In this document: positions 4,594 through 45,767 of the stretch, piece by piece | Numbering within the stretch: position 1 is the stretch's first letter | How the letters are laid out: each line of letters starts with the position of its first letter | NCBI GenBank assembly: GCA_041389045.1 | Contig: JAWKSQ010000001.1 | Span: 203,063-267,062 of the forward strand | Reading direction: 5' to 3' | Length of the DNA: 64,000 nucleotides | Source of the DNA: Minisyncoccota bacterium | Lineage (GTDB): Bacteria; Patescibacteriota; Minisyncoccia; Phycocordibacterales; UBA918 | Program-made: the position numbers and the translations under genes | Notes under the pieces: model-generated | The model's input: the letters and a program-made list of their open reading frames with translations, nothing else | The model's database searches: none | What the model was told of the DNA's origin: nothing

Positions 4594-6278
4594 ATGAAAG
4601 AAGTTATTGAACAAGCGATTAAAGAGATTTGTCAGGAACTCCGTTTACCAGCGGTGGCTTTTGTCGTCGAGCACCCGGCCGAGACTTCCCATGGTGACTA
4701 CGCTTGTAACATAGCCTTGGTGCTTAGTAAGCAGGTCGGAAAGCGCCACGAGCAGTGGCGGAAGAACTGCTTGTGGCGCTTGATGGTCAAATCGAATATG
4801 TTGATCGCTTAGAAATAGCTGGTCCTGGCTTCATTAACTTCTATTTAGCTCAAGAATTTTTTGTGAGTGAACTGGTCCGTATCCATGAACTTGGTGATAG
4901 TTGGGGGAAGAATAGTGACTTAGTAGGGAAGAAGGTGCTAGTAGAATACACCGACCCCAATCCGTTTAAAGAGTTTCATATCGGGCATCTTTTCACCAAC
5001 GCCGTCGGTGAAAGTATCGCTCGACTATTTATGATGCAGGGAGCTGATACTAAGCGTATCAATTACCAAGGTGATGTAGGTTTGCATGTGGCGCACGCTG
5101 TGTGGGGAATGCAGAAACTAGGTATTTCCCGGGTAGTGACTTTTCGGCGCGTGAACTCGGCAAAGCCTATGCTCTCGGCGCCACAGCCTACAAAAATGAA
5201 GAGGAGAGGCCGTCGCTGAGATTAAGTCCATCAATAAAAAAATCTACGAACGTAGTGACGACAGTGTGAATGCGCTTTATGATGCTGGTCGAAAGGTTTC
5301 GCTAGAATATTTTGCGACAGTTTATAAAGTGTTAGGGACGGAGTTTTCTGATTACTTTTTTGAAAGTGAGACTGGTCCGCTGGGTAAAAAGTTGGTCTTA
5401 GAAAATCCAGAAATATTCCCTTTAAGTGATGGAGCCAATGTTTTTAAGGGGGAAGAGTACGGTCTGCATACTAGAGTATTTTTGAATAAAGAAGGTTTAC
5501 CGACCTACGAAGCGAAAGAATTAGCTTTGGCTAAACTAAAAGAAGACAGACTTGGCACTTATGATTTGTCGGTTATTTCTACTGCTAGTGAAGTTAATGA
5601 ATATTTTAAAGTGCTCCTTAAAGCTCTTAGTTTTATTTACCCAGAACTATCGGCTAAGACTGAACATATCGGGCATGGCATGGTCAGACTAACGACCGGT
5701 AAGATGTCATCACGAACTGGTGATGTGATACCGGCTCTGGATTTTATTGATGAAGTGGCCGAGTCAGCCACTAAAAAATGGCCGACAGCGGACATACTGA
5801 GCCTGACACTGATTTAGCTTGGGAGGTGGCGATTGCGGCTATCAAGTACACCACGCTTCGTGGCAATATCACCCAGAATTCTATTTTTGATAAAGACAAG
5901 GCTTTGTCGTTTGAGGGCGACTCTGGTCCGTACTTGCAGTATACCCATGCGCGTATTTGTAGTGTGCTCGAGAAGGCTAAGCTCTCTGGACTAAGTGCTG
6001 ATGTGGATTTGGCGCCAGAGAAACCATACGCTGTCGAGCATCTTATCTATATTTTCCCGGAAGTAGTGAAAGAGGCGTTTTTAGAAAGAGCGCCACACAA
6101 AGTGACTGGCTTTTTGACGGAGCTCGCTAGTGCTTTTAACTCATTTTACGCCGAAGAAAAAATCGCCGATGATACTGATACTTATGCTCCATATAAGATT
6201 GCTGTGACAGAAGCAGTAAGGCAAACAATCAAAAATGGTCTTTGGATATTAGCTATCAAAGCCCCAGAGCGGATGTAA
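4594..6278 (+). CDS. argS: arginine--tRNA ligase, split into 4 ORFs by four single-base deletions
   Basis: All four ORF-track pieces (4582-4812, 4755-5219, 5266-5817, 5778-6278) read as consecutive ArgRS segments (..EYTDPNPFKEFHIGHL.., ..KMSSRTGDV.., ..LQYTHARICS..). Frame changes sit near 4748 (aaa), 5126-5128 (ccc), about 5203 (gagagg) and 5771-5776 (a6). Confidence 0.9.
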
Positions 6279-6313
6279 TGTTTAAGCCCCGCTAGTCTTG
6301 CGACTAGCGGGGC
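6272..6313 (+). repeat. copy A of a 42-nt direct repeat: last codons of argS plus a terminator hairpin
   Basis: gatgtaatgtttaaGCCCCGCTAGTCttgcGACTAGCGGGGC. Apart from one loop base it is identical to 6740-6781. The 12-bp stem can act as a bidirectional terminator. Confidence 0.85.
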
Positions 6314-6319
6314 GGAGCC

Positions 6320-6661
6320 TTATCTTTCGGCGAGGAGCCGAAGTGTAGTGGTTGCTGTGGCTTTGGTCCTTCCATTGTCCCACTCCACTATTGCGTTGAA
6401 CTTAGTGTGGCCAGCATGATCAGGTAGAGGGGATATATAGATGACTACACCGGTGTCTTTTTCGATCATGCTTTGAACTCTTTTTCCTAACCACTCCATT
6501 TGTAGTGACTTGATCTGCTCTGCTCGTGTAGCAACTGTAGATTTGTGTCTGTTGAGCCACTCAATCATTGTGAAGCAACTATTCCGAGTTGGTGGTGGAA
6601 TCAGTCCCAATTCCTGGAGGGTAGTGATTTGTCTGGCCGTGGGTTCTGTAATCTTTGGCAT
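6320..6661 (-). CDS. hypothetical protein (ORFan)
   Basis: 113-aa ORF with AAGGAG upstream. It has its own promoter module (6698-6726) and terminator module (6286-6313). Confidence 0.6.
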   Translation of the reverse strand: MPKITEPTARQITTLQELGLIPPPTRNSCFTMIEWLNRHKSTVATRAEQIKSLQMEWLGKRVQSMIEKDTGVVIYISPLPDHAGHTKFNAIVEWDNGRTKATATTTLRLLAER

Positions 6662-6697
6662 TGTTTAGATCTCCTTTGATAAACTTGTCCGGTGAAA

Positions 6698-6726
6698 AAG
6701 ATACGTCAGTAATTGTTAGATGTAAA
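6698..6726 (-). promoter_or_regulatory. sigma70-like promoter, copy 1 of a duplicated promoter/5'UTR module
   Basis: The minus strand reads TTTACA, then 17 nt, then TATCTT. About 60 nt (6680-6738) is about 75% identical to 7340-7400. Confidence 0.6.
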
Positions 6727-6739
6727 GCGGTGAAGAATT

Positions 6740-6781
6740 GATGTAATGTTTAAGCCCCGCTAGTCTTTCGACTAGCGGGGC
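6740..6781 (+). repeat. copy B of the 42-nt direct repeat (terminator hairpin)
   Basis: gatgtaatgtttaaGCCCCGCTAGTCtttcGACTAGCGGGGC lies immediately 3' of the minus-strand gene 6807-7313. Confidence 0.85.
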
Positions 6782-6806
6782 TTTTCGTATGGTTCGGCCT
6801 CCGAGC

Positions 6807-7313
6807 TCATGTATTTTCGGCACCGTACTTGACTACCACCTCGGCCATTTTCCAATCAGGTATATCTGGTAACAAAGGTTGCCTTTTTCTGGCTCTTAAA
6901 CAACGTAACTCTACTCGACCTTCGATAATTACAAAGTCTGCATAAGGGAATAACAAAGTCTGTTCTTCCGACGGTAATTTAGCGTAGGCAATGAAAATCT
7001 TTGCCACTTCTCGTGAGAATACCGGGTAATCTTTTGGTAGACAGTGTATACGAAATGTGACAATGTTTTTCAATACTAGCTCCGGTAGTTCACCAGATGC
7101 GGTAGTTAAGGGTCTAGTGTCACCCACATTTTCCATCCCCGAGAATGCAAGTCTACACAGATCCGCCAATCCATCCTCAATCCGTTTCAGAACCTCAAGC
7201 TTCAATTCCTTATTAACAAATAAAGGATATAGAAAAAAGTGAAATGGAAACCTTTTCTTCAGAGCTCTCAAGTTGACCTTCTGCAAAGTTTTTGAAATAA
7301 CGAATTTGCTCAT
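6807..7313 (-). CDS. hypothetical protein (ORFan)
   Basis: 168-aa ORF with GGAGG upstream. It is flanked by the same promoter and terminator modules as 6320-6661. Confidence 0.6.
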   Translation of the reverse strand: MSKFVISKTLQKVNLRALKKRFPFHFFLYPLFVNKELKLEVLKRIEDGLADLCRLAFSGMENVGDTRPLTTASGELPELVLKNIVTFRIHCLPKDYPVFSREVAKIFIAYAKLPSEEQTLLFPYADFVIIEGRVELRCLRARKRQPLLPDIPDWKMAEVVVKYGAENT

Positions 7314-7356
7314 GGTCGCCTCCTGTCAGTGTTGATGAGCGTAACTTACCTAGCGA

Positions 7357-7385
7357 AAAGATACGCCAGTAATGGTTAGCTGTAA
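7357..7385 (-). promoter_or_regulatory. sigma70-like promoter, copy 2 of the duplicated module
   Basis: The minus strand reads TTTACA, then 17 nt, then TATCTT. Confidence 0.6.
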
Positions 7386-7403
7386 AGTAGGTACAGATTG
7401 TCG

Positions 7404-7432
7404 CTAGACAAAGTCTAATTCTTGTATTATAG
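7404..7432 (+). promoter_or_regulatory. candidate divergent promoter for 7471-7803
   Basis: TAGACA, then 17 nt, then TATAGT, sitting back-to-back with the 7357-7385 promoter. Confidence 0.45.
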
Positions 7433-7470
7433 TCCAATTAGAACCCGATGTCCGGGAGAAAGGAGACTGT

Positions 7471-7803
7471 ATGAAAGTACGTGACGATACCCGGAAGTTT
7501 TTGGTTGTTTGTCTGGCATACCATTGCCTAAATCAGGTAAACAAACAAATGCCAAGAGTTTTGTCTTGTGAAGCAGGTTCAGTTCAAGATGTACTGCGAC
7601 AGTGTCTGGATGAAGTTTTCTTCAAAGATGACGGAGTTCCGTCGCCTAGCGAATTTCGCTTTGGTTGGGAAGACAGTCCTCACATGAAACCACCGAGTGC
7701 CGGTACTGAAAGGTACGTGTGGTACGGTAACGACCCTCAGGTTTTCCAGGATTTTGTTGAGAGACATATTCAACCGTACTTTGCAGAAGAAGTGATTCGT
7801 TGA
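7471..7803 (+). CDS. hypothetical protein, paralog of 8638-9009
   Basis: 110 aa with AGGAG upstream. The C-terminal blocks FRFGWEDSPHM..VWYGND..DFVERHIQPYFAEE align with FLFGFENHPHL..PWWGTE..EFIRQNLLPFFPAEQ in 8638-9009. Confidence 0.65.
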   Translation: MKVRDDTRKFLVVCLAYHCLNQVNKQMPRVLSCEAGSVQDVLRQCLDEVFFKDDGVPSPSEFRFGWEDSPHMKPPSAGTERYVWYGNDPQVFQDFVERHIQPYFAEEVIR

Positions 7804-7952
7804 AGGTTACTCCTTTCTGACAATTTTTTGCCGATTAAGAATTCGCTGCCTCCATTTGGATGGTGGCGGATTATTTTTTAAACTTGTAAAATTCAATTAT
7901 TTGGCATAGGATTCGTTCGAATCCCGATGGTCGGGGTTATAAGGAGATAGGC

Positions 7953-8201
7953 ATGAAGAAACTGGAAAAATACATTCCTTTTCGTAACGAAGTTGCCCAA
8001 GTGGCAGTCCTCAATATTTTGGCTTGCACCAAGAGCCCGTGTTCCTTGGTTGTTCTGAGGGAACGTATCGTTTTTCTTTGGCCCGATTACGATGAAACTG
8101 AATTGGTCAATGCGTTTTCAAAACTGGCCTGGCAGAAACTGTTGTCTACCAGTGGTGACTTGTCCAACCCACATGAGTTCTATCTTCACTTGACGACATG
8201 A
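7953..8201 (+). CDS. hypothetical protein (ORFan)
   Basis: 82-aa ORF with AAGGAG upstream and a rho-independent terminator directly downstream. Confidence 0.55.
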   Translation: MKKLEKYIPFRNEVAQVAVLNILACTKSPCSLVVLRERIVFLWPDYDETELVNAFSKLAWQKLLSTSGDLSNPHEFYLHLTT

Positions 8202-8233
8202 GCGCTGACCAGGTTCAGCTTTTCCTCATGATA

Positions 8234-8262
8234 CCGCCCACCTTTGGGCGGTTTTTTTTTTT
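8234..8262 (+). terminator. rho-independent terminator
   Basis: ccgccca / tgggcgg stem followed by 11 T. Confidence 0.8.
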
Positions 8263-8328
8263 GTCTCTCTAGATCAAGTTTTTCATTAAATCTAGTACAG
8301 AGCCAGCTCTAGAGCTAGCTCTGTATTT

Positions 8329-8526
8329 GTGGTAAATTTATATGATATGGGACTAACCAAAAAAGAAGAACGTAGTATACGAAAGCTTACTCGAACGGGT
8401 GGTGGTAAGAGTGTATCGGTAACATTACCAATAGATTTGATTCGGGAACTAAAGTGGCAAGATAAGCAAAAAGTAACTGTCATAAAGAAAGGAGAGCAAC
8501 TAATTATTAGTGATTGGAAAAAGTAA
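8329..8526 (+). CDS. AbrB/SpoVT (MazE-like) family DNA-binding protein
   Basis: ..RKLTRTGGGKSVSVTLPIDLIRELKWQDKQKVTVIKKGEQLIISDW fits the looped-hinge-helix pattern (G-S-x-x-V-T-L/I-P ... G-D/E-x-V). The start may be the ATG at 8347. A 28-nt imperfect palindrome lies upstream at 8298-8326. Confidence 0.6.
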   Translation: MVNLYDMGLTKKEERSIRKLTRTGGGKSVSVTLPIDLIRELKWQDKQKVTVIKKGEQLIISDWKK

Positions 8527-8637
8527 TATTTTAATATTGCTGGATCTTGCATAAAAACCAGGAAAGTATAAAGTGTGCTGTTAGTACTTCCAGTGGTCGG
8601 AGGTATGGGTCTGTTCCAAAACAAGGAGAATTAAACA

Positions 8638-9009
8638 ATGGGTAAAAGTCATAATAAACATCCACGCGTTTGCATGGTGTATCGTCCGGCTTACCATAAG
8701 TCGAATGGAGAGGGTCATGTTGTACTCTTTCGGGTTCGTTGTGAATGTATCAACACCGCCATCGAATGTTTCATGAAAGAGCTGCCGCCTGAACTGCACA
8801 TTCCCAAGTTGGCTGATTGGGGTGCCCAAGGCTCGGCGAGTTTCCTTTTTGGGTTTGAAAACCACCCTCATCTTCAAGATGTAAGGGCGAAGAATTTGCC
8901 GTGGGTTCCCTGGTGGGGTACCGAGCAAAATGGCCCCGTTGAAGAGTTCATTCGACAGAATCTTTTGCCGTTCTTTCCTGCCGAACAACAACAAGCGAAA
9001 GCTGCTTGA
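8638..9009 (+). CDS. hypothetical protein, paralog of 7471-7803
   Basis: 123 aa with AAGGAG upstream. It shares the C-terminal motifs described for 7471-7803. Confidence 0.65.
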   Translation: MGKSHNKHPRVCMVYRPAYHKSNGEGHVVLFRVRCECINTAIECFMKELPPELHIPKLADWGAQGSASFLFGFENHPHLQDVRAKNLPWVPWWGTEQNGPVEEFIRQNLLPFFPAEQQQAKAA

Positions 9010-9041
9010 TTCGGGTTCGGCCAGCTAGTCTGGCCGAAAAA

Positions 9042-9066
9042 CCGCCCTTTGCCAGGGCGGTTTTTC
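9042..9066 (+). terminator. rho-independent terminator
   Basis: ccgccct / agggcgg stem followed by a T-run. A second hairpin, cggccagctagtctggccg, lies just upstream. Confidence 0.75.
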
Positions 9067-9187
9067 TTATTTTCAAAGGTGGGATTTGTGGTATGCTGAA
9101 TATCCGTATCTGATATATACGGTCTTATTATGTCTGATAAACATACCCGAAGTTCATAATTTTTGGGCTTTGGAAATAAATATATTT

Positions 9188-12100
9188 ATGAAAAAAATAC
9201 ATGGACGGGAGAATGATTCAGTGGAGGTAGTACCAGAGGTAACCAAATCTGACGTGTCATTGCGAGAAGAGGCGATACAAAAGTTTTGGGACGAGAACGA
9301 TATTTTTAATAAAAGTTTGCATGCTCCAGCGGGAGCAGAGCCTAAGGGCGATTTTGTATTTTATGATGGGCCACCGTTTGCGACGGGTACGCCACACTAC
9401 GGCCATATTTTAGCCGGAACAATTAAAGATGCCATTCCACGTTTTTGGACGATGAATGGTTTTCGGGTGCGTCGTAAATGGGGTTGGGATTGTCATGGTC
9501 TACCACTCGAGAACTTGATCGAGAAGAAACTTGGTCTGGCTAACAAGCGTGATATCGAAGAATACGGCGTCAAGAATTTTAACGAACAAGCTAGAGAGGC
9601 TGTACTTGAGTATCGTGACGACTGGAAAAAAGTAGTGCCTCGTATGGGACGCTGGGCAGACATGGAAGACGACTACAAGACCATGGATAGCACTTATACG
9701 GAAAGTGTGTGGTGGGTATTTAAGTCCCTATACGAAAAAGGCTTAGTGTATGAAGGTTTTAAGAGTATGCATCTTTGTCCACGTTGTGGGACAACCTTGT
9801 CTAACTTCGAAGTAAATCAGGGCTATAAGGATATTAAAGATATTGCGGTGACGGTAAAGCTCCCGCTTCTAGATGATGCAGGTAATAAGACTGATACTGC
9901 ACTTTTGGTTTGGACAACTACTCCTTGGACTTTGCCTGGTAATATGGCTGCGGCGGTGAATAAGGATTTTGATTACGTGAAAGTAAAGGTAAAAGCTGAA
10001 GCAGGTGAAGAAAATTTGCTTTTAGCTAAAGGACGGCTTGCGCAACTGGGTGATTTGGCGTACGAGGTAGTAGAAGAAATAAAAGGCTCTGAGTTGGTGG
10101 GTAGAAAGTACGAACCACCGTTCGATTATTTTAAACATGATGAAAGGGTATTAACAGACTGGGTATGGACTATTTTTCACGCTGACTACGTCGAACTTGG
10201 CGAAGAGGGAACTGGGGCGGTGCACTTGGCTCCAGCCTACGGTGAAGACGACATGGTATTAGCTAAAGCGGAAGGAGTACCAATCGTGCATCATGTTGAC
10301 TACGAGGGGCGTTTTATGGATTTTGTGACTGACTTCGCTGGGAAGCTAGTAAAGCCAAAAGATGATGACGATGCCGGGGTATCTCACCTGGACGCTGATA
10401 TTGAAATTGTGCGTGCTCTAAATGCCTCCGGTAAATTATTTAAAAAAGAGAATATCACTCACAGTTATCCGCACTGCTGGCGTGATGATACTCCACTTCT
10501 CAACTACGCGACTACATCATGGTTTGTGGAGGTGACCAAAATTAAAGATGAACTGGTAGAAGCTAACAATAAAGTGAAGTGGGTACCAGAGCATGTCGGA
10601 AGTAACCGCTTTGGGCGCTGGCTTGAGGGCGCGCGCGACTGGGCTATTTCTCGTCAGCGTTATTGGGGGGCTCCGCTTCCGATTTGGCGTAATCCTAAAA
10701 CTCAGGAATACAAAGTCTTTGGCTCTTTAGCTGAACTACAAGAATACGTGCCAAAGAGTGGAAACACTTATGTGCTGATGCGTCATGGTGAGACTGGATC
10801 AAATTTAGAACATAAAATTAGTTTAAAACCCGATGGTGTTGATCCTCTCACAAGTCGTGGTGTAGAGCAGGTCACTGAAGCGGTAAAAAACCTAGATCAA
10901 AAAATTGATCTAATAATCCACACTGGATTTGAGAGAACCAGAGAAACGGCAGAAATAGTAGCTAAAATTTTGAATCTGACACCTGAAGCAGTTATCTGTG
11001 AACCAAGGTTAGGGGAGATTAAAATGCCCGAAGACATGCAAGGAAAGATTTGGTCTGAATATGACGCCTTATTTCCAGAGTGGACAGATAGATATACCAA
11101 AAAAATTGAAGGCTATGAAAACCGCCTCGATGTTCGCCGTCGCTCAGGTGAGTGGTTGTTTGAAACAGATGCAAAGTATAAAAACAAAACAATCTTAGTG
11201 GTTGGTCACGGATGTAGTATATTAGAACTTGAAAGTATATTTGCTGCAACTGACGAGAAAACTGCTGAAGAGGTGTACGAGTCTAGACAATATTATAAGA
11301 ATGCCCAAACTGAAGAATATAAGCTAAATAAGTTCCCCCATAACGATGATTATTTACTTGATTATCATCGACCATACATAGACGACTTTGAGTTAGTAGA
11401 TACCGACGGAGTTAAGTTAGTTCGGGTACCAGAAGTCTTTGACTGCTGGTTTGAAAGTGGGTCGATGCCGTATGGACAACAACATTATCCGTTCGAGAAT
11501 AAAGCCAACTTCGAGAAAGAGTATTTTCCAGCGCAGTTTATTGCGGAGGGTCTTGATCAGACTCGCGGTTGGTTCTATTCACTGATCGTGCTTGGTACAG
11601 CGCTTTTTGGTAAGTCGCCGTATGAGAACGTTATTGTAAATGGACTTGTGCTGGCGGAAGACGGCAAAAAGATGAGTAAGTCACTGCGTAATTATCCTGA
11701 CCCGATGGAACTAGCTGACCGGGTGGGGGTAGACGCGATGCGTTACTACTTACTTTCCGCACCGATTATGCGTGGTGAAGATTTGGCTTTCTCCGAGAAG
11801 GAAGTCCTTGAGCTTCAACGAAAGAATATCGGACGTTTGCACAATGTGCTTGCGATGTATGAAATGTTCGCCGATGGTACCGAGGTGGTGGCAGATTCAA
11901 AAAATATTCTCGACCGTTGGATTGTTTCTCGCCTTAATCAGTTGGTTAAAGAATCGACCGAAGGTTACCAGAATTACGAACTAGATAAAGCAACTAGACC
12001 AATAGCGGACTTCATTGATGATGTGTCGGTGTGGTATTTGCGTCGTAGCCGGGAGAGACTGAAGGGAGATGACGCCGAGGATAAGAAATTGGCTCTGGGC

Positions 12101-12742
12101 ACTCTTAGATACATACTTCGGGAGCTGGCTAAAGTGATGGCACCGGCTATGCCTTTCTATGCTGAGTATTTGTGGCGGGTGGTGCGAAATGAAAACGAAG
12201 TTGAGAGTGTGCACTTAACGGCCTGGCCAGAGGGAGGGGAGATTGTGAGTGAACTAATTGTCAGTATGACTAGTGTGCGTTCGTTTGCGAACATGGGACT
12301 TAAACTGCGTACGCAAAAGAATATTGGTCTCAAGCAACCACTTAAACAATTCATCATTGGAGACTCATTTGTAGCACCAAAAAATTGGGAGGAGTGTGCC
12401 GGTATTTTGGCTGATGAATTAAATGTAAAAGAGGTGGTTTTGCGACCAGAACTGGAAGGGGTTAGCTTTGACTTTGATATCACGCCTGAACTTAAGCTGG
12501 AAGGCGAGGCGCGGGAGTTTATTCGAGCGGTGCAGGAGAGGCGCAAAGCCGAAGGCTTTGCGCCTCAAGACGAGATCGAATTGATCATAGACACTGACGA
12601 AGCTGGGCGACATTTAGTGGAAACTCATCAAGCTACAATAACTAAGATCGTCGGGGCCAGTCAGGTGGTTTTTGCGGAAACTGTTGGTGAGTCTATCATG
12701 GCTGGAGAAAAGACTTTCACTGTAGCGCTAAAGAAACTCTAA
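9188..12742 (+). CDS. ileS: isoleucine--tRNA ligase carrying an inserted histidine-phosphatase-family domain
   Basis: PHYGHIL (HIGH), TTTPWTLPGN (editing domain), WAISRQRYWGAPLPIW, FDCWFESGSMPY and KMSKSL are all present. The likely start is the ATG at 9188, because the ORF-track start at 9086 adds a non-homologous leader. See the nested domain feature. Confidence 0.92.
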   Translation: MKKIHGRENDSVEVVPEVTKSDVSLREEAIQKFWDENDIFNKSLHAPAGAEPKGDFVFYDGPPFATGTPHYGHILAGTIKDAIPRFWTMNGFRVRRKWGWDCHGLPLENLIEKKLGLANKRDIEEYGVKNFNEQAREAVLEYRDDWKKVVPRMGRWADMEDDYKTMDSTYTESVWWVFKSLYEKGLVYEGFKSMHLCPRCGTTLSNFEVNQGYKDIKDIAVTVKLPLLDDAGNKTDTALLVWTTTPWTLPGNMAAAVNKDFDYVKVKVKAEAGEENLLLAKGRLAQLGDLAYEVVEEIKGSELVGRKYEPPFDYFKHDERVLTDWVWTIFHADYVELGEEGTGAVHLAPAYGEDDMVLAKAEGVPIVHHVDYEGRFMDFVTDFAGKLVKPKDDDDAGVSHLDADIEIVRALNASGKLFKKENITHSYPHCWRDDTPLLNYATTSWFVEVTKIKDELVEANNKVKWVPEHVGSNRFGRWLEGARDWAISRQRYWGAPLPIWRNPKTQEYKVFGSLAELQEYVPKSGNTYVLMRHGETGSNLEHKISLKPDGVDPLTSRGVEQVTEAVKNLDQKIDLIIHTGFERTRETAEIVAKILNLTPEAVICEPRLGEIKMPEDMQGKIWSEYDALFPEWTDRYTKKIEGYENRLDVRRRSGEWLFETDAKYKNKTILVVGHGCSILELESIFAATDEKTAEEVYESRQYYKNAQTEEYKLNKFPHNDDYLLDYHRPYIDDFELVDTDGVKLVRVPEVFDCWFESGSMPYGQQHYPFENKANFEKEYFPAQFIAEGLDQTRGWFYSLIVLGTALFGKSPYENVIVNGLVLAEDGKKMSKSLRNYPDPMELADRVGVDAMRYYLLSAPIMRGEDLAFSEKEVLELQRKNIGRLHNVLAMYEMFADGTEVVADSKNILDRWIVSRLNQLVKESTEGYQNYELDKATRPIADFIDDVSVWYLRRSRERLKGDDAEDKKLALGTLRYILRELAKVMAPAMPFYAEYLWRVVRNENEVESVHLTAWPEGGEIVSELIVSMTSVRSFANMGLKLRTQKNIGLKQPLKQFIIGDSFVAPKNWEECAGILADELNVKEVVLRPELEGVSFDFDITPELKLEGEAREFIRAVQERRKAEGFAPQDEIELIIDTDEAGRHLVETHQATITKIVGASQVVFAETVGESIMAGEKTFTVALKKL
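10760..11355 (+). other. nested histidine phosphatase (phosphoglycerate-mutase superfamily, branch 1) domain within ileS
   Basis: LMRHGETGSN .. LTSRGVEQ .. GFERTRETA .. RLGEIKMPEDMQGK .. VVGHGCSI lies between two IleRS core blocks, in frame, with no stops. Confidence 0.75.
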
Positions 12743-13275
12743 TGTCCTACGTGACGTACATTACCGAAGCTTTGGTTTGTGGTACGTTCAATCGAAATAC
12801 TGCTGACCGCACTTATTTACTTTTTACCAGAGAAGCTGGAATGCTTTACGCTGATGCTCGCAGTGTTAGAGAGGAAAGGAGTCGACAACGCTACGCCCTG
12901 CAAGATTTTGCCCGTATCCGGGTATCGCTCGTTAAAGGTAAAAAAGGTTGGAAGATTGGTAGTGTGGAAGCGGGGCCAAATTATTTTTCTTTAGCTAGTA
13001 CCAGAGAAGCTCGGGCTAGCGTAGTGTCTCTCTATCGTGCTTTGAGACGTTTCATTCAGGGTGAGGAAGTGTCGCCGGAGTTGTTTGATTTTTGTCTCGA
13101 GGCACTGACAGAAGCGATTAAACCGATTAAGCATCGTGACTTTTTTGATTTGTGTGTTCAACTTAAGTTGATGACTAGTCTTGGCTATGTGGCAGATGGT
13201 CTGGTTCCAACTGAGCTAAATCAAACCCCTATCAGTGAAGTAGTAAACAAAGAAAGTCAGCCTTTGCGGAAATAG
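12742..13275 (+). CDS. recO: probable DNA repair protein RecO (short form)
   Basis: The start overlaps the ileS stop (TAATG). The N-terminal OB-like pattern ..TEALVCGT..DRTYLLFTREAGMLYADARSVR.. and the C-terminal ..LMTSLGY resemble RecO. Similarity was judged by eye. Confidence 0.55.
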   Translation: MSYVTYITEALVCGTFNRNTADRTYLLFTREAGMLYADARSVREERSRQRYALQDFARIRVSLVKGKKGWKIGSVEAGPNYFSLASTREARASVVSLYRALRRFIQGEEVSPELFDFCLEALTEAIKPIKHRDFFDLCVQLKLMTSLGYVADGLVPTELNQTPISEVVNKESQPLRK

Positions 13276-13355
13276 ATAACCGCCCTCATCAGTCAAGCCA
13301 CCTTGAATAGTCAGCTCTAACCAGACTATGTTTGGTGTTATACTAACTATATTGT

Positions 13356-15356
13356 ATGTCTGGCATTAGAGATCAAGAGAATATTGATGAACTGAGACGA
13401 CGCCTTTATGAGCGGGGAGGAGAAGTTGAAAGTGCCAAAAGACACACCCTTACCCCACATGAAGTTGATGTCTCTCGTGGTTGGGACAGTATCACCCCAC
13501 CTAAAGTTCAGGTTGATGAAAAAGTAGAGACAGCTCTAGCTGAAATCGCTAATACCCCAACTGAAGTTGCACCGCAATTAAACCTGCCGGAAGAAGCGGA
13601 GGTGTCTCAAGATACTTTTGTGCCACCAGTTAAAGTGAAGCGCCGTTATCGAATGTTTATTCTGGCCGCCAGTATTTTATTCTTTATTATTACCGCTACT
13701 GCCTCCAGCATTTATTTGTTCTTTGGCTCTAACCAGATTTCAGCCAAAAATATCAGTCTGTCACTTAGTGTGCCTTTTTCGGTAGCCGCCGGGGAAGTAG
13801 TGTCTGTGCAAGTCAGTATTGCCAATCAGAACTCAGTTCAAGTTGATTCCGCTACATTAATCCTCAATTATCCTTCCGGTACTAGGTCGGCTGATGAGGG
13901 TGGGCGAGAGATGTATGAAGAAAGAATACCTATAGAAGCCATTGCTCCCGGGCAAGCTCTCAACATACCGGTGCGAGCGGTTTTCTTTGGTGAAGAAAAT
14001 GAAACCAAAGAAATCAAAGCTTCCATCGAATATCGAGTAACTGGTTCTAACGGTACTTTCTTTAAGGAAGCTGAGCCACAACAACTCCAGATTAGCTCTT
14101 CGCCAGTAGTGATTAGAATGACAGGAGTAGAAAAGATTTCTTCGGGGCAAGAAATGCTACTTAAACTTGAACTAAAATCAAACTCTCCGACCGCCCAAAA
14201 AAATATTCTAGTCAGTGCCACTTATCCCAATAGTTTCGCTTTCTCTAAATCAGACCCCGAACCAACTTATGGTCGAAATGGCTGGCTTATTTCTGAACTT
14301 GACTCAGGTGAAGTTTATACGATTGAACTAACTGGTATTGTCACCGGACAGGCTAACGAAAGTTCAGAAATCCAGCTCAAGGCCGGTAACCCACAATCCA
14401 GCAATCCAGCCAACCTGGCTTCTGTTTTGTCGCAAACTACGTACGGCTATACTATCGAAAAGGCCTTTACCGACGTAACGGTGGAAGTAAATGGTGATAG
14501 GGATGGTCAAGCAGTCATTGCTCCTGGTGAGGAAGCGTCGGTAGTGGTATCAGTTAAGAATACCTTAGAGGAAACAGTCTATGATATGCGAGTGGATATT
14601 GAGCCGAGAGGCAACCTAATTCGTGATGACTTACTTGTTATCGATAAAGGTTTTTATGATTCTGCCACTAAGAGAATCCGCTTCGAGGTATCTGGCTTGC
14701 CAGAATTAGCTGAAGTCTTACCAGGAGAAACGCGAAAATTTACTTTCAAAGTAAAACCTGATGAAAATCAAACCACGGCATCTTTCAATGTTTCCACCAA
14801 CATCTACGCCCGCAGAGTGAATGAAGTGAGGGCAGCGGAAACACTGATTGCGACAGCAGAAACTGAGGTCAAGTATTCTTCTAACATTTTCCTGGGCAGG
14901 CAGTTGGGTTACAGTGACGGTCCGTTTACTGATACTGGCCCGGTGCCACCCGTAGCTGACACCGAGACTACCTACACCGTGACGCTCGTGGCCGGCGCTG
15001 GAGTAAATGATCTCTCTGGAGTAATAGTGACGACTAGTCTGCCTCAGTATGTGGAATGGTTGGATGAGGTTGCGGGTGATGGGACCATAGAAGTAGACAG
15101 TGTGTCCAAGAAACTGACTTGGAATGTGGGCGAAGTTTCGTCACTAAAGAGTAAAACGGTAAAGTTCCAAGTCCAGATGAAACCTAGTGTGACACAGGTA
15201 GGGCAAACCGCTATTATCCTCGGTCAACAAGAGATGCGCGCCACGGACAAGTTCACGAGTGTGCCACTGCGGATTCAGCAAAGTACCCTTAATAATGAAT
15301 TATCAACCGAACTTGGTTTTGCCCGTGGAAATGGTAATATCCAGTCACGTCAGTAG
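13356..15356 (+). CDS. large membrane-anchored protein with repeated beta-rich extracytoplasmic modules
   Basis: 666 aa with a charged N-terminus, a single TM segment (FILAASILFFIITATASSIYLFF), then long S/T/V/E-rich repeats. Confidence 0.65.
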   Translation: MSGIRDQENIDELRRRLYERGGEVESAKRHTLTPHEVDVSRGWDSITPPKVQVDEKVETALAEIANTPTEVAPQLNLPEEAEVSQDTFVPPVKVKRRYRMFILAASILFFIITATASSIYLFFGSNQISAKNISLSLSVPFSVAAGEVVSVQVSIANQNSVQVDSATLILNYPSGTRSADEGGREMYEERIPIEAIAPGQALNIPVRAVFFGEENETKEIKASIEYRVTGSNGTFFKEAEPQQLQISSSPVVIRMTGVEKISSGQEMLLKLELKSNSPTAQKNILVSATYPNSFAFSKSDPEPTYGRNGWLISELDSGEVYTIELTGIVTGQANESSEIQLKAGNPQSSNPANLASVLSQTTYGYTIEKAFTDVTVEVNGDRDGQAVIAPGEEASVVVSVKNTLEETVYDMRVDIEPRGNLIRDDLLVIDKGFYDSATKRIRFEVSGLPELAEVLPGETRKFTFKVKPDENQTTASFNVSTNIYARRVNEVRAAETLIATAETEVKYSSNIFLGRQLGYSDGPFTDTGPVPPVADTETTYTVTLVAGAGVNDLSGVIVTTSLPQYVEWLDEVAGDGTIEVDSVSKKLTWNVGEVSSLKSKTVKFQVQMKPSVTQVGQTAIILGQQEMRATDKFTSVPLRIQQSTLNNELSTELGFARGNGNIQSRQ

Positions 15357-15378
15357 TGGCGAATAATCTCTGAATTCT

Positions 15379-16764
15379 ATGAATAACGATAAAATGGAAA
15401 AAATTGTCTCCCTGGCCAAGCGTCGCGGCTTTGTCTTTCAAGGTAGTGAAATCTATGGGGGTTTTGCTGGTACCTACGATTATGGTCCTTATGGTGTAGA
15501 GCTAGCTAATAATATTAACGCGACTTGGTGGAAAGCGATGGTTCAGGCAGAGCGGAATATCGTTGGTCTTGATTCGGCTATTGTCACTCACCCTAAAGTT
15601 TGGGAAGCGTCTGGCCATGTCAGTGGTTTCTCTGATCCATTAGTGGAGTGTAAAGAATGTAAAACTCGTTCTCGGGCCGACCATTTACTGGAAGAAGTCG
15701 GGGCGTTTGCTGATGAGAAAATGTCGCTCGAGGAAATCAACCAGGTCTTTGACGAAAACCGCGCTAAAATTGCTTGCCCAAAATGTGGGCAGAAAAAGTT
15801 TGGTGAGGTCACCCAGTTTAATCTACTTGCCCAGACCAATCTTGGTAATTTTTCTGAAGACTGGAGTAAGGAGCCTTCTTATTTAAGAGGTGAAACTTGT
15901 CAGGGTATTTATATAAACTTTAAAAACGTCCTTGATTCTTCAAGAGTTAAGGTGCCGTTTGGTATCGCTCAGATTGGTAAGGCTTTCCGTAATGAAATCG
16001 CTCCGCGACAATACATCTTTCGTTTACGAGAACTAACTCAGATGGAAATGCAGATGTTCGTGGCCCCAGAAAAAGAAATGGAAGTCTATGAAAGCTGGAA
16101 GGAGAAGCGGATGCAGTACTATCTTGATCTCGGGTTTAAGCCTGAAAATCTTAAGTGGCATGAACACGAAAACCTAGTCTTCTACGCCAAAGCAGCTTTT
16201 GATATTGAATATAATTTCCCGTTTGGTTTCAAAGAACTCGAAGGGGTACATGCCAGAGGTAATTACGATCTGACTCAGCATCAAAAGTTTTCTGGTGTCA
16301 GTATGGAATATCTCGACCCTTACACTAACGAGAAGTATCTGCCACACGTGGTAGAAACTTCAGTTGGTCTAGACCGCACCTTCTTGGCGGTATTAAGTGA
16401 ATTTTATGATGAAGATGAACTAGGTGGTGAGAAGCGGGTGGTGCTCAGGTTGCCAAAGAAGTTGGCGCCAATCAAGGTAGCGGTCTTTCCACTTCTAAAG
16501 AATAAGCCTGAATTAGTAGAGAAGGCTGAGGAAGTTTTTGCTCTGCTCTCTGGTGAGATGCGGGCGGAGTTTGATGATAATGGCAATGTTGGTAAGCGCT
16601 ACCGTCGCCAAGACGAGATCGGTACCCCAGCTTGTGTCACTATTGACTTCGAGACTCTGGGTGAAGAAAAACCAGAACTGAAAGATACTGTGACCGTCCG
16701 TAATCGAGATACTGGAGAGCAGGAAAGAGTAGCGATTGCTGATTTGGTGGGGTATTTGAAGTAG
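15379..16764 (+). CDS. glyQS: glycine--tRNA ligase (dimeric class II type)
   Basis: ..LAKRRGFVFQGSEIYGG..GTYDYGPYGVEL.. and ..FRNEIAPR.. with an anticodon-binding C-terminus. Confidence 0.93.
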   Translation: MNNDKMEKIVSLAKRRGFVFQGSEIYGGFAGTYDYGPYGVELANNINATWWKAMVQAERNIVGLDSAIVTHPKVWEASGHVSGFSDPLVECKECKTRSRADHLLEEVGAFADEKMSLEEINQVFDENRAKIACPKCGQKKFGEVTQFNLLAQTNLGNFSEDWSKEPSYLRGETCQGIYINFKNVLDSSRVKVPFGIAQIGKAFRNEIAPRQYIFRLRELTQMEMQMFVAPEKEMEVYESWKEKRMQYYLDLGFKPENLKWHEHENLVFYAKAAFDIEYNFPFGFKELEGVHARGNYDLTQHQKFSGVSMEYLDPYTNEKYLPHVVETSVGLDRTFLAVLSEFYDEDELGGEKRVVLRLPKKLAPIKVAVFPLLKNKPELVEKAEEVFALLSGEMRAEFDDNGNVGKRYRRQDEIGTPACVTIDFETLGEEKPELKDTVTVRNRDTGEQERVAIADLVGYLK

Positions 16765-16780
16765 ACTGCATAGGTAAAGA

Positions 16781-16810
16781 CGGACGCACCGTAGGTGCGT
16801 CCGGCTTTAT
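16781..16810 (+). terminator. rho-independent terminator after glyQS
   Basis: cggacgcacc / ggtgcgtccg stem, then gctttatt. Confidence 0.7.
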
Positions 16811-16838
16811 TATGCCGTTATGATACAGTTATTTTTAC

Positions 16839-18290
16839 ATGAAAGCTAAATATATTACTACCACTCTACCTTACGTAAATTCCGACCCTCACATTGGTTT
16901 TGCTTATGAGCTCGTTCAGGCTGACGCAATAACGCGTTACTGGCGCTTGCTGGGGCAGGAGGTATTTTTTAATACTGGGACCGATGAACACGGTCAGAAA
17001 ATTGCCGATAAAGCCGACGAGAAAGGTGAGTCGAGGCAAGCTTACGTGGACTACTATGCAAATGAGTTCAAGAAATTAGCTGACGCTAAAACCGGTCTGA
17101 ATCTTTCCTACGCTGAAGGAGGTAATTTTATCCGTACAACCGACGAAGCTCATAAAATGGCGGCCCAAGAAATGTGGCGCCGGTGTGCCACCAAGGGCGA
17201 TATATATAAAAAGAAGTACAAGGGACTTTACTGTGTTGGTTGTGAGCTTTTTTATAAAGAAGACGAACTAGACGAGAATAAGTGTTGTCTTATACACGGT
17301 AAGCCGACTACTGAAGTCGAAGAAGAAAATTACTTTTTTAAACTTTCAAATTACCAAACTTATTTAGAGGAATATTTGTCTAAGGAAGGGGTGATAGTAC
17401 CAGAGTGGCGACGCCAAGAAGCCATTAACTTCGTGAAAGGAGGTTTGCAGGATTTTAGTATTTCACGTGAGAAGGCTAGGTTAAATTGGGGTGTGCCAGT
17501 GCCAGGGGATGATGATCAAGTGATGTACGTGTGGTTCGACGCCCTGACAAACTACATCTCTACTTTAGGCTGGCCAGAGGAAGACGGAGATTTCAAAAAG
17601 TTTTGGACAGGTGGCGAGGTGGTACAACTAGGTGGGAAAGACCAAGTGCGCTTTCAATCAGTCATGTGGCAAGCCATGCTTAGGTCAGCGGGAGTAAAAG
17701 CGACCGATAAAGTGGTCTATCACGGTTTTATCAATAGTGGCGGACAGAAGATGAGTAAGTCTTTAGGGAACGTCATCTCTCCTTACGAAATGATTGCGCG
17801 TTATGGCGCTGACGCTACGCGCTATTTACTGCTACGGCACGTGCATCCTTTTGATGACTCTGATGTCACTCTGGAAAAGCTCGATGAGTGGTATACGGCT
17901 GGACTGGTAAATGGCCTTGGAAATCTTGTATCTCGTATTACAAACATGGCAGAAAAATATGTACCTGAATCTAAACGGTTGCAATTTTCAGAAGAAGAAA
18001 TTTTTCCAGAGTTTAATAATAGTATTAATGCTTTTCGGTTCGATAGTGCCATTGATTTTATTTGGCATGAAATAGGGATTTTAGATCAGGAAATCCAGGA
18101 TAGGGAACCTTTTAAATTAGTAAAAGTGGATGAGCAAAAAGCCATCGAGGTTGTTAATGAATTAATGAAAGATTTATATTGGATAAATAGTTATTTATTC
18201 TGCCTCATGCCGGATACTGCAGATATAATTAAAAAAGCAATCATAAATTACAAAAAACCCGAAAACCTCTTTCCACGCTTAGAAAAATAA
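16839..18290 (+). CDS. metG: methionine--tRNA ligase (short form)
   Basis: ..TTLPYVNSDPHIGF.., ..GTDEHGQKI.. and ..KMSKSLGN.. are present. Confidence 0.93.
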   Translation: MKAKYITTTLPYVNSDPHIGFAYELVQADAITRYWRLLGQEVFFNTGTDEHGQKIADKADEKGESRQAYVDYYANEFKKLADAKTGLNLSYAEGGNFIRTTDEAHKMAAQEMWRRCATKGDIYKKKYKGLYCVGCELFYKEDELDENKCCLIHGKPTTEVEEENYFFKLSNYQTYLEEYLSKEGVIVPEWRRQEAINFVKGGLQDFSISREKARLNWGVPVPGDDDQVMYVWFDALTNYISTLGWPEEDGDFKKFWTGGEVVQLGGKDQVRFQSVMWQAMLRSAGVKATDKVVYHGFINSGGQKMSKSLGNVISPYEMIARYGADATRYLLLRHVHPFDDSDVTLEKLDEWYTAGLVNGLGNLVSRITNMAEKYVPESKRLQFSEEEIFPEFNNSINAFRFDSAIDFIWHEIGILDQEIQDREPFKLVKVDEQKAIEVVNELMKDLYWINSYLFCLMPDTADIIKKAIINYKKPENLFPRLEK

Positions 18291-41328: not shown

Positions 41329-41544
41329 CCTTACAGGAATGTAAGGGTGTATGGTGGATGCCTAGGCTTCAAGAAGCGATGAAGGACGTGTTATGGCTGC
41401 GATAAGTTTCGGCGAGGTGCCAAATAACCTTTGACCCGGAAATGTCCGAATGGGGAAACCCTCCTGTCATCGGCAGGAACCTATGTATGTAGGAGCTCAC
41501 CCAGCGAAGTGAAACATCTCAGTAGCTGGAGGAAAAGAAAGCAA

Positions 41545-41611
41545 TATACGGAACTTTCTTTCTGATCAGATTCAACTTCGGTTGAGCCATTATGATCAGG
41601 AAGAAGGTTCT
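41545..41611 (+). other. about 66-nt expansion hairpin in 23S domain I
   Basis: E. coli GGAAAAGAAATCAACCGAGATTCC is interrupted as ggaaaagaaagcaa[..]tgcgattcc. The insert is a long hairpin: cggaactttctttctgatcag / (c)tgatcaggaagaaggttc. Confidence 0.6.
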
Positions 41612-41882
41612 TGCGATTCCCTTAATAGCGGCGAGCGAAACGGGATCAGCCCAAACCGTACGTATTTATATGTGCGGGGTTGTAGGGCAAAGACGGCATT
41701 TAGTTGCGAAGAGTTACAAAACAGATTGATAAAAAAACGCTTTGGAAAGAGCGACCCCAGAAGGTAATAGTCCTGTATTTGAAATCTATCTGACTCTTTT
41801 GTTTTTGTTCCTGAGTAGTTCGAGACATGAATAGCTCGAATGAATCTACCAGAACTAACTGGAAAGGCTAAATATTCTTGAA

Positions 41883-41928
<46 letters not shown>

Positions 41929-43368
41929 GGAGAGGGGAGTGAAATAGATCTGAAACCATACACCTACAAGGAGTCGGAGCCTCAATTTATTGGGGTGACG
42001 GCGTGCCTATTGAAGAATGAGCCGGCGAGTGTGTCTTTGTCCTTTGTCTAAGTGGTAAACCCACGGAGGCGCAGTGAAAGCGAGCGTGAATAGCGCGAAT
42101 ATAGGGCAGGGATACGACCCGAAGCGTGATGAGCTTGCCATGAGCAGGGTGAAGCGACAGTAAAATGTCGTGGAGGCCCGAACCGGTTGGCCGTACAAAA
42201 CCATCGGATGACTTGTGGTAAGGAGTGAAAAGCTTATCGAATTACGTAATAGCTGGTTCTCTCCGAAACAGCTTTTGGGTTGGCGTCGCGTGGTCCCCCT
42301 GGGGGTAGAGCACTGGAAAGAAAAGACAGGGAGAAATCTCGCTTTTCTTATCAAACTCCGAATACCAGTGGATTATAGCGCGGCAGTTAGACTATGGGGG
42401 AGAAGCTCCATTGGTCGAAAGGGAAACAGCCCAGATCGCCAGTTAAGGTCCCTAAATATATACTCAGTGCAAAGTGAGGAGGTGAGGATTCACTAACAGT
42501 CAGGAGGTTGGCTTAGAAGCAGCCATCCTTTAAAGAAAGCGTAACAGCTCACTGATCGAGAGTCCTTGCGCCGAAGATGATCGGGGCTCAAGTATATTAC
42601 CGAAACTGCGAATTCGTACCTTAGGGTACGAGTGGTAGGAGAGCGTTCGTATCTGCGATGAATGGAAGGCGGAAGCCGACCTGGAGCGATGCGAAGTGAG
42701 AATGCCGGCACAAGTAACCGCAAGACGGGTGAGACCCCCGTCCGCCGAAATACCAAGGTTTCCTTTGCGATGGTGATCATCGAAGGGTTAGTCGGTCCTA
42801 AGAGAATCCCGAATGGGGGACTCGATGGATAGCAGGTTAATATTCCTGCACACTGCTGCGTTCCTATGGAGGGACGGAGCGTTGTACTTACAGCATCTTA
42901 TTGGATTGGTGCTGGAGCACTGAGGAAGTCACGTAGGCAAATCCGCGTGGCAATATTCCGAGGTGAGTCTGAAGGTGAGGCTACGGCCGATCTGATGTAA
43001 GGAGCACGCTTCCGAGAAAAACTTCGTTTGGGTTAAGCATAGTGGTTCCGTACCGCAAACCGACACAGGTGGTAGAGTCGAGAAGACTAAGGCGAACGAG
43101 TGAGAGGTCCTCAAGGAACTCGGCAAAAAAGCGACCGTAACTTAGGGATAAGGTCCGCCCTTATAGAAGTATAAGGGCCGCAGCGAAAGATTTCCTGCCG
43201 ACTGTTTAACAAAAACACAGCTCTCTGCGAACACGTAAGTGGATGTATAGAGGGTGACGCCTGACCTATGCTGGAAGGTTAAGTACGGGGGGTGGTATGT
43301 ATTTATATGTACTGCTGGACTGTATAAGCCCCAGTAAATGTCAGCGATAACTATAATCGTTCTAAGGT

Positions 43369-43586
43369 CGAGCACCTTATTTTTAATAAGGTGCTCGACG
43401 GATTGGAACGGTTATAGGTTAAACAGCCTAGCCACAGTTACCTTACCTACGGAAACGTAGAGTAATCCAAATCTAGCCAACAAGAGACCAAATGCTAGAC
43501 ATCCGCAACGGGTAATGCCGTGGATGAAGATAGAGTCCTATTGGTGCACTTGCAAGTAAGGCTTGCAGTTTAAGAAGGAAAAATAG
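43369..43586 (+). ncRNA. ORF-less group-I-like intron in 23S at E. coli position 1931
   Basis: The exons rejoin as CTAAGGT|AGCGTATTTCCTTGTCGGGTAAGTTCCGAC, matching E. coli C1925-C1961. The 5' exon ends in U and the insert ends in G. The insert has GNRA-capped hairpins (ctacgGAAAcgtag, ..gGTAAt..). Confidence 0.7.
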
Positions 43587-44223
43587 AGCGTATTTCCTTG
43601 TCGGGTAAGTTCCGACGTGCACGAATGGCGTAACGAGTGGGAAACTGTCTCGAGGACCTGCTCGGTGAAAATACAATCCCGGTAAAGATGCCGGGTACCT
43701 GCAGATAGACGAAAAGACCCCAGGTGCTTTACTGTAGCTTCGTATTGAGGCTATTGAATTAATGCGTAGCATAGGAGGGAGACTTTGAAGTGGGCTTTCG
43801 GGTACCATGGAGTCGCCAGTGAAATACCTCTCTTTATTTTGGTAGTTTCTAACCAGATAGAAAAAATCTATCTGAGACAGTGCGTGGCAGGCAGTTTTAG
43901 TGGGGCGCTACCCTCCCAAAAAGTAACGGAGGGGTCTCAAGGTTGGTTAGGCGCGAATGGAAACCGTGCCGATAGTGTAATGGCATAAACCAGCTTGACT
44001 GTAAGGCGTAGATGCCGAACAGACGCGAAAGCGGAGCATAGTGAACCGATGGATTGCGTTAGATGCATCCGGAGATACCCGATAAAAGTAACCCTGGGGA
44101 TAACAGGCTAGTCGTGCCCAAGCGTCCATAGCGACGGCACGGTTCGGCACCTCGATGTCGGCTCGACTTATCCTGGGGCTGGAGCAGGTCCCAAGGGTTT
44201 GGCTGTTCGCCAATTAAAAAGTC

Positions 44224-44261
<38 letters not shown>

Positions 44262-44308
44262 CTCCTATCTACTGCAGGCGTCGATTCTTGAGGAGAGTTG
44301 TTCCTAGT

Positions 44309-45089: not shown

Positions 45090-45168
45090 ACGAGAGGACC
45101 GGAATGAACGAACCTCTGGTCTATCGGCTGTCACGCCAGTGGCACCGCCGAGTAGCTATGTTCGGAAT

Positions 45169-45201
<33 letters not shown>

Positions 45202-45620
45202 AACTCCAAGATTAGGAATCATTAAGTCCCCTGAGAGATGATCAGGTTGATAGGCACTAAGTGGAAGCACAGCAATGTGTGGAGCTGAGGTGTACTAATA
45301 GGACGTAATTCCTGTAAGGAACGTTGCACATCGCCTTGAGCGTAAATTAACGAATTTCTTCGTTGCAGTGTCAAAAATAATTTTCGCTGGACTTCGTGTC
45401 CCGCTTGAATTCTTTTTGACACCACGCCTCGAAATTCATTTAATTTTCATCTCAAGGTTTGAAACAAGCTGTATGATTTGAAAAGTGTTTAAGTTGTGAT
45501 TTTACCTAGGGTCGGCAAAAGCTTCGCTTTTGCCGACCAAGAATTAGAATATGCGGTATAGTTTAAGACTATATTTATATTGAAAGTAGTAATAAGATCG
45601 TCAAGGTCTTTACTTTAAGT

Positions 45621-45697: not shown

Positions 45698-45767
45698 TCC
45701 ATCACATTGTGATGGTCTTATTACTACTTTTGATATAGTTGTCACAATATTGCTATTGAAAATTTAA

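Follow-up and report, generated by a model that had tools for sequence, protein, structure and literature searches.

Does the isoleucyl-tRNA synthetase (IleRS) of a patescibacterium carry a second enzyme, with an active site of its own, inside its core, and if so, what might that guest be doing there? The question is raised by the ileS gene in a stretch of 64,000 nucleotides from a Minisyncoccota bacterium (GenBank assembly GCA_041389045.1, contig JAWKSQ010000001.1, positions 203,063 to 267,062 of the forward strand; hereafter the window), whose product holds 203 amino acids (aa) of histidine-phosphatase type between two parts of a recognisable IleRS. With moderate confidence, and going by sequence and predicted structure, we favour the reading that this is a bifunctional protein, in which a working type-2 IleRS would be joined to a catalytically competent branch-1 histidine phosphatase lying within the CP3 subdomain. 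Neither partner is out of the ordinary, whether the type-2 IleRS as host or the branch-1 phosphatase as guest; it is their combination, and the nested position in CP3, that is unusual.

The ileS reading frame is unbroken, running as a single open reading frame (ORF) on the plus strand from 9086 to 12742, and the N-termini of homologues place its start at the ATG at 9188, which gives a product of 1184 aa. In the Pfam scan of the whole protein, tRNA-synt_1 was matched in two stretches (461 bits), together with His_Phos_1, Anticodon_1 and DUF5915, the last being the C-terminal domain of the IleRS protein, and the NCBIfam ileS model TIGR00392 was likewise matched in two stretches flanking the insert (886.1 bits, cut-off 621.4). 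The next-best NCBIfam matches were the mupirocin-resistance IleRS models MupA and MupB, pointing to a type-2, eukaryote-like enzyme. The best solved relatives are eukaryotic cytoplasmic IleRSs and the IleRS2 of P. megaterium (E 1e-218 to 1e-197), the type-1 IleRS of S. aureus being a far weaker match (E 1.7e-92), and the fold search gives the same ranking. Sequence and fold match the type-2 mupirocin-resistant IleRSs of known structure (8c8v, 8wnd, 9w01) along the whole synthetase, their HIGH, KMSKS and CP1 editing motifs and DUF5915 being present here as well, and the full-length AlphaFold model matches 8c8v and the yeast enzyme 8wnd with target-normalised Foldseek template-modelling (TM) scores of 0.69-0.71.

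These motifs are also well kept in relatives. The HIGH signature reads HYGH, with H70, G72 and H73 invariant among 61 close homologues, and takes the form PHYGH or PGIHH in distant members; the WTTTPWTLP motif of CP1 is found in 46 of the 55 full-length representatives and in near-identical form in the remainder; the other CP1 motif, GTGAVHLAPAYGEDD, is conserved in the family as well; FDCWFESGSMPY, with which the catalytic core resumes, is invariant or near-invariant among homologues; and KMSKS persists as K[ML]SK[SRK] in distant representatives. With its HIGH, KMSKS and CP1 editing motifs intact, the host IleRS looks functional, and the 64-kb window contains no second ileS.

The guest was identified by profile, by alignment and by fold. 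His_Phos_1 is matched with 77.5 bits (gathering cut-off 21.7, E 1.4e-21) between the two tRNA-synt_1 stretches, an arrangement that had been anticipated, along with the uninterrupted ORF, in the original prediction, a model's reading of the letters and their ORFs. The best sequence match among solved structures is PhoE of B. stearothermophilus (1ebb/1h2e, E 4e-6), and the alignment sets RHGET opposite RHGET, eRtrETAEIV opposite gRalETAEIV, rlgEI opposite rlrEI and vvgHG opposite ivtHG. The RHG signature proposed at LMRHGETGSN (R532-H533), the acidic residue (E610) and the distal histidine in VVGHG (H674) thereby fall opposite their PhoE counterparts. The second arginine had been sought in two places, only one of which stands: R583 of GFERTRETA is the conserved residue, whereas R557 of TSRGVEQ is not a conserved active-site residue, its column holding K or R with a commonest state of only 41%, and the fixed residues of that motif being T555 and G558.

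At the level of structure, AlphaFold folds the insert alone with confidence (predicted local distance difference test, pLDDT, 92.2; predicted TM score, pTM, 0.89), in agreement with the separate lobe for which the original prediction had proposed to look, and the insert is also the best-predicted region of the full-length model (block pLDDT 83-95). Foldseek matched it to GpgP (Rv2419c), PhoE, the phosphoserine phosphatase PspA, CobC and dPGM with probability 1.00, TM scores of 0.66-0.76 and E down to 5e-13, and a cap region is present between E610 and H674. Fold, catalytic residues, cap and a similar size are thus shared with PhoE, GpgP (4qih), PspA (4ij5) and CobC (6nru), but identity to these is only 21-26%, and they stand alone whereas the insert is nested. 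Sequence and predicted fold together make the insert a branch-1 histidine phosphatase whose active-site residues are in register. Going by superfamily chemistry, a phosphomonoester would be held by R532, R583, H674 and N539, H533 would attack the phosphorus to form a phospho-histidine intermediate, and E610 would protonate the leaving group and then activate a water molecule for hydrolysis.

The insertion point is defined by the alignment to human cytoplasmic IleRS (9w01_B, E 6.6e-218), in which residues 24-520 of the query pair with 13-491 of the chain and residues 724-1089 with 497-886. The break delimits the inserted segment as aa 521-723, or 10748-11356 of the window, close to the roughly 200 codons at 10760-11355 that had been set apart as foreign to IleRS. 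These 203 residues stand in place of a five-residue loop of human CP3 and follow a short helix, SLAELQE, about 25 residues downstream of the linker DWAISRQRYWG; no solved IleRS holds anything at this site. CP3 (residues 473-534 of the C. albicans and 459-526 of the yeast IleRS) forms a small beta-beta-alpha-alpha unit that separates CP2 from the second Rossmann half, and its topology varies among IleRS types (PMC7191050; PMC7955072). Together with the human alignment, these boundaries specify as CP3 what had been described as the connective region. The first and last beta-strands of the guest are the two ends of the segment, so that it can plug in as a separate lobe. Both junctions are conserved, as GS..EL...N.Y..MRHG on the upstream and LP.N....LD.HRPYID on the downstream side, which points to a single common site of insertion within CP3, a peripheral subdomain.

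How selection has treated the guest also speaks for an active enzyme. Among the 55 full-length representatives, mean pairwise identity is 0.29 for the insert, as against 0.50 and 0.44 for the two Rossmann halves and 0.41 for CP1; the guest domain evolves fast, faster than the IleRS core. Its active site does not follow this drift: R532, H533, N539, R583, E610 and H674 are found in 100% of 120 close homologues, and among 150 distant representatives R532, H533 and R583 show zero substitutions in the rows covering the column, the E610 column has 141 rows with E and 11 with D, H674 is kept in 150 of the 151 rows covering it (the exception being a Tyr), and N539 is kept in 134 of 150. When 23 very diverse inserts, picked by hand, were aligned, ten insert columns proved invariant, namely the five catalytic residues and T555, G558, T587, E644 and R652, which belong to the general family motifs LT..G, R...TA and GE...R. 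No degenerate phosphatase active site was seen in the sets examined. Catalytic residues that stay fixed while the surrounding insert drifts make the pattern of an active enzyme, not that of a decaying or purely structural module.

The same pattern bears on the reading in which the guest is a pseudo-enzyme, serving as a structural brace or as a sensor of phosphate or a phospho-ligand that tunes IleRS allosterically. Inserted domains of aminoacyl-tRNA synthetases (aaRSs) often have binding or regulatory roles, the insert evolves faster than the core, and it fits no characterised subfamily, so that a substrate cannot be assigned. Yet ligand binding alone does not need both a nucleophilic histidine and a general acid glutamate, and the five catalytic residues are essentially invariant across about 150 representatives at about 30% identity; we hold a non-catalytic module to be very unlikely.

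The architecture is not peculiar to the window. An identical protein (P0005) is present in NCBI on a 416-kb contig of a Candidatus Paceibacterota metagenome-assembled genome (MAG), and PF00300 occurs together with the IleRS families in all 120 best homologues (64-78% identity), which come from assemblies in NCBI, ENA, JGI and Logan. With the insert and about 40 IleRS residues on each side as query, exhaustive HMMER searching of 1.84 billion representatives of clusters at 50% identity yielded 135 proteins with E < 1e-30; of the best 150 matches, nearly all consist of one stretch (5 have two or three), with 31-54% identity, and about 115 span flank, insert and flank, the others being fragments that cover part of the query. 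A scan of GTDB with one genome per species found at least 48 loci with the insert, and of the 48 listed, 38 hold it in one continuous ORF of 1120-1260 aa, while the other 10 are cut by contig ends or have shorter ORFs (L036, L046). Record titles name Paceibacteria/Paceibacterota, Parcubacteria, Nomurabacteria, Wolfebacteria, Yanofskybacteria, Kaiserbacteria, Falkowbacteria, Kerfeldbacteria and Spechtbacterales; many third-party-annotation MAGs are titled 'uncultured Candidatus Saccharibacteria', a label that could not be verified, and one short insert-bearing contig sits in a 'Spirochaetia' bin, where it is probably mis-binned. The architecture is thus widespread in Patescibacteria, in hundreds of lineages, and is not rare, and the insertion point that the original prediction suggested looking for in other IleRSs of the Candidate Phyla Radiation (CPR) and of bacteria recurs across a large and deeply diverged patescibacterial group.

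Because the same in-frame architecture recurs with conserved junctions in 120 of 120 close homologues from independent assemblies, in at least 150 representatives of 50% clusters and in at least 48 species genomes, we reject a chimeric assembly or binning join of ileS and a phosphatase gene, to which the metagenomic origin of the window and the fragmented look of the nearby argS lend some initial plausibility but which is left with a negligible chance. The reading as a selfish insertion, an intein or mobile-element remnant, which a discrete segment of about 200 aa in a conserved essential gene and an 'HN' near the C-terminal junction (P717-H718-N719) might suggest, is equally rejected as having next to no likelihood, since there is no Hint/intein or transposase family (His_Phos_1 is the sole Pfam family in the segment), the segment opens with VPKSGN and HN is followed by Asp, neither position being Cys, Ser or Thr, and the fold is that of a complete histidine phosphatase.

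Two HIGH types are found among the 55 insert-bearing IleRSs, P-H-Y-G-H in 36 and P-G-I-H-H in 19, so that the insertion spans two deep IleRS2 subgroups and must be ancient unless it passed from one to the other. Insert and IleRS-core distances show a weak but significant correlation (Spearman rho 0.23, reached in 0 of 2000 permutations), which fits joint inheritance. A single origin of the insertion is probable, in an ancestor of the Paceibacteria/Parcubacteria-type lineages, with inheritance alongside the host enzyme since then.

Some relatives depart from the common plan. Seven shorter representatives (P0132, P0139, P0158, P0163, P0168, P0170 and P0224; about 720-760 aa) all start 35 residues upstream of DWAISRQR and have N-termini of the kind 'MS.LRD.L..N..I.W.P'; these could reflect an ileS that is split in some lineages, with the N-terminal half and CP1 encoded separately, or else gene calls truncated by recoded stop codons or contig ends. 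Others, about 4 of the 150 representatives, hold further nested modules: P0263 has two GNAT domains, one within CP1 and one in the loop that follows 'WFESG.MPYA'; P0161 has a GNAT domain in that same loop and, within CP1, an IS200-like Y1 transposase domain; in P0230 the loop holds a P-loop kinase (AAA_33/AAA_18, GACGAGKT); and in P0201 the anticodon-binding domain begins with another complete His_Phos_1 (RHGET...). No relatives of the P0230 kinase module were detected in a module search, so this module looks rare.

What the phosphatase would act on is approached through its relatives. A PhoE-like full cap, and nearest relatives that are metabolite phosphatases (GpgP, PhoE, PspA, CobC), favour a small substrate, and on this structural ground we take the substrate to be, most likely, a small phosphomonoester and not a folded macromolecule. 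Queried with the insert only, an index of 5.8 billion proteins yielded four weak free-standing phosphatases (30-35% identity, E 1e-6 to 4e-4) and missed the IleRS family wholly, probably a limitation of the word index. No second copy of the domain was found when an HMM of the insert family was run against all ORFs of the 64-kb window.

Several observations weigh against a bifunctional enzyme of the kind we favour. The full-length AlphaFold model reaches a pTM of only 0.65, with low pLDDT at the IleRS active-site motifs. The insert also lies below the NCBIfam cut-offs of dPGM_arch (42.5-43.7 bits, cut-off 225), CobC (40.5-44.8, 162.9), SixA (26.8-30.2, 74.5), PspA (26-31, 350) and GpmB (32-36, 261), and being far below every characterised equivalog it has no substrate that can be transferred to it. 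The extra nested enzyme domains, finally, hint that proximity to IleRS may matter beyond pure hitch-hiking. Considering both sides, we still prefer the bifunctional protein, and with respect to the relation between its two activities we lean slightly towards an independent housekeeping phosphatase that is co-expressed with an essential protein, or towards loose coupling.

A tighter relation, with the phosphatase working in cis on something phosphorylated at the active site of IleRS, is the alternative that survives best, and we regard it as unlikely; coupling to Ile-tRNA charging had been suggested in the original prediction. In a 'heal and charge' scheme, tRNA-Ile might have a blocking phosphate taken off its 3' A76 or its 5' end before charging; alternatively, the domain might undo the phosphorylation of IleRS or its tRNA by kinase toxins, as built-in immunity or regulation. 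GNAT, kinase and phosphatase classes elsewhere modify tRNA ends or aminoacyl groups. The HD domain of the CCA-adding enzyme of E. coli repairs 3' ends through phosphatase activities, the CCA ends of tRNAs are pyrophosphorylated by toxSAS toxins, and HipA-type kinases phosphorylate aaRSs. Further in favour of coupling are the retention of the insert within an essential enzyme over very deep divergence, the rare relatives that add a second His_Phos, a GNAT or a P-loop kinase to the IleRS scaffold, and the position in CP3 itself, some 25 residues past a CP2-CP3 linker that in yeast contributes to the pocket binding the CCA end of the tRNA and reveromycin A (PMC7955072). On the other hand, the nearest structural relatives are full-cap phosphatases of small metabolites, and the insert is not consistently basic, its net charge having a median of -1 and its isoelectric point exceeding 7.5 in only 47% of members, which makes charge an uninformative proxy for RNA binding here. 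Neither the insert nor the whole protein matched the PADLOC defence library, the extra modules are confined to about 4 in 150, and the kinase among them is without detectable relatives. Nor do we see a reason why IleRS alone should need such a partner, the MetRS, ArgRS and class II aaRS of the window being without a phosphatase domain. To our knowledge, tRNA ends are not a substrate of any histidine-phosphatase superfamily member.

A bolder form of coupling would make the patescibacterial IleRS a platform for on-enzyme modification or repair chemistry beside the aminoacylation site, a proposal that we find more doubtful still. Here the phosphatase would remove phosphate from the acceptor end of tRNA-Ile, from IleRS or from an adenylate-like inhibitor, and in some lineages a nested GNAT, P-loop kinase or second phosphatase would add further chemistry. 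If true, it would mean repair, immunity to toxins targeting tRNAs or aaRSs, or a phospho-switch of isoleucine charging in episymbionts with minimal genomes.

Other proteins offer partial parallels. The best NCBIfam match of the insert is the bifunctional RNase H/acid phosphatase of the Rv2228c type (NF005567), at 46 bits against a cut-off of 326; as a precedent, these actinobacterial proteins also combine a histidine phosphatase and a nucleic-acid enzyme in one protein, but the fusion there is end to end and with another partner, while the insert here is nested. The biological reason for the RNase H/acid phosphatase pairing is likewise unclear. An IleRS that hosts an extra enzyme domain is already a recognised category, ileS_w_GNAT (NF040702), from which the present protein is distinct in that it scores 323 bits against a cut-off of 1999, shows no GNAT in the Pfam scan and has a phosphatase as its guest; GNAT domains as in that category do occur in some relatives within the IleRS-phosphatase family. 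Databases list these proteins under the name 'class I tRNA ligase family protein' or 'isoleucyl-tRNA synthetase', and PF00300 is precomputed for them, so the architecture is implicitly recorded already; we found no description of it in the full text of 8 million papers and preprints, a search that did not cover subscription-only literature.

In the window, ileS belongs to a cluster of synthetase genes at 4755-18290 (argS, ileS, a class II aaRS gene and metG; Table 1). Its TAA stop shares one base with the ATG of the following short gene, which is RecO_N-like, and a 666-aa DUF11 protein is encoded between the latter and the class II aaRS gene. The argS gene (4755-6278, plus strand) is apparently broken into three ORFs, for which frameshifts or sequencing errors, a pseudogene and a genuinely split gene are all possible explanations. 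The roughly 1 kb upstream of ileS (8202-9187) contains no Pfam-supported ORF, although the 123-aa ORF at 8638-9009 could be a genuine orphan gene, and an Rfam scan of the region upstream of ileS (E threshold 1) gave nothing convincing (best 28 bits, E 0.022). Two strong hairpins close this stretch; the second, AAAAACCGCCC-UUUGCCA-GGGCGGUUUUU at about 9040-9075, has A and U runs on both sides and so resembles a bidirectional intrinsic terminator, the folding z-score being -3.8 on the minus and -1.9 on the plus strand. Farther downstream lies a partial rRNA operon (41331-45876), and no 16S rRNA was found in the 64-kb window.

Table 1 Coordinates in the window of the ileS gene, its motifs and nested phosphatase, and of neighbouring genes.
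Feature	Position	Strand	Basis or remark
ileS coding sequence, type-2 IleRS with nested phosphatase	9188..12742	+	ORF list, TIGR00392, consensus of homologue N-termini
HIGH signature HYGH, aa 70-73, aminoacylation site	9395..9406	+	translation; conserved in homologues
CP1 editing core, WTTTPWTLP (aa 242-250) to GTGAVHLAPAYGEDD (aa 341-355)	9911..10252	+	translation
CP2-CP3 linker DWAISRQRYWG, aa 484-494	10637..10669	+	translation; invariant in homologues
Inserted segment, aa 521-723 (203 aa), histidine phosphatase with short junctions	10748..11356	+	alignment break against 9w01_B
Pfam His_Phos_1 match, aa 529-678, profile positions 2-151 of 194	10772..11221	+	profile search
R532-H533, RHG motif; H533 predicted phospho-accepting nucleophile	10781..10786	+	opposite PhoE RHGET
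N539, Asn of the RHGE-x-x-x-N signature, predicted phosphate pocket	10802..10804	+	conservation in homologues
R583, predicted second phosphate-binding Arg (ERTRETA)	10934..10936	+	opposite PhoE sgRalETA
E610, predicted general acid/base	11015..11017	+	opposite PhoE rlrEI; E or D throughout
H674, distal His of the predicted phosphate pocket (VVGHG)	11207..11209	+	opposite PhoE vtHG
FDCWFESGSMPY, aa 751-762, catalytic core resumes after CP3	11438..11473	+	translation, human IleRS alignment
KMSKS signature, aa 828-832	11669..11683	+	translation
argS ORF 1	4755-5219	+	end of N-terminal domain and start of catalytic domain
argS ORF 2	5266-5817	+	middle of catalytic domain
argS ORF 3	5778-6278	+	DALR anticodon-binding domain
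RecO_N-like short gene	12742-13275		one-base overlap with ileS stop
Class II aaRS	15379-16764		tRNA-synt_2b and HGTP_anticodon
metG	16839-18290		
23S rRNA	41331-44295		full-length match, no large insertion
tRNA-Trp(CCA)	45621-45697		between 23S and 5S
5S rRNA	45769-45876		

The aaRSs are among the most conserved enzymes, and catalytic guest domains in their cores are rare and tend to be informative, the editing domain of CP1 being the classic case. Against this background, the IleRS described here has a second complete predicted active site in the core region of an essential enzyme, and it has been kept by selection across much of the CPR. It can be argued that retention in tiny CPR genomes, which shed dispensable functions, means that the phosphatase does something these cells need. 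If it is coupled to charging, it would represent a new mode of quality control or regulation of an aaRS; an independent metabolic phosphatase would close a gap in what has been reconstructed of CPR metabolism and exemplify gene economy by domain nesting. Either way, the nested phosphatase provides a lineage marker for these bacteria.

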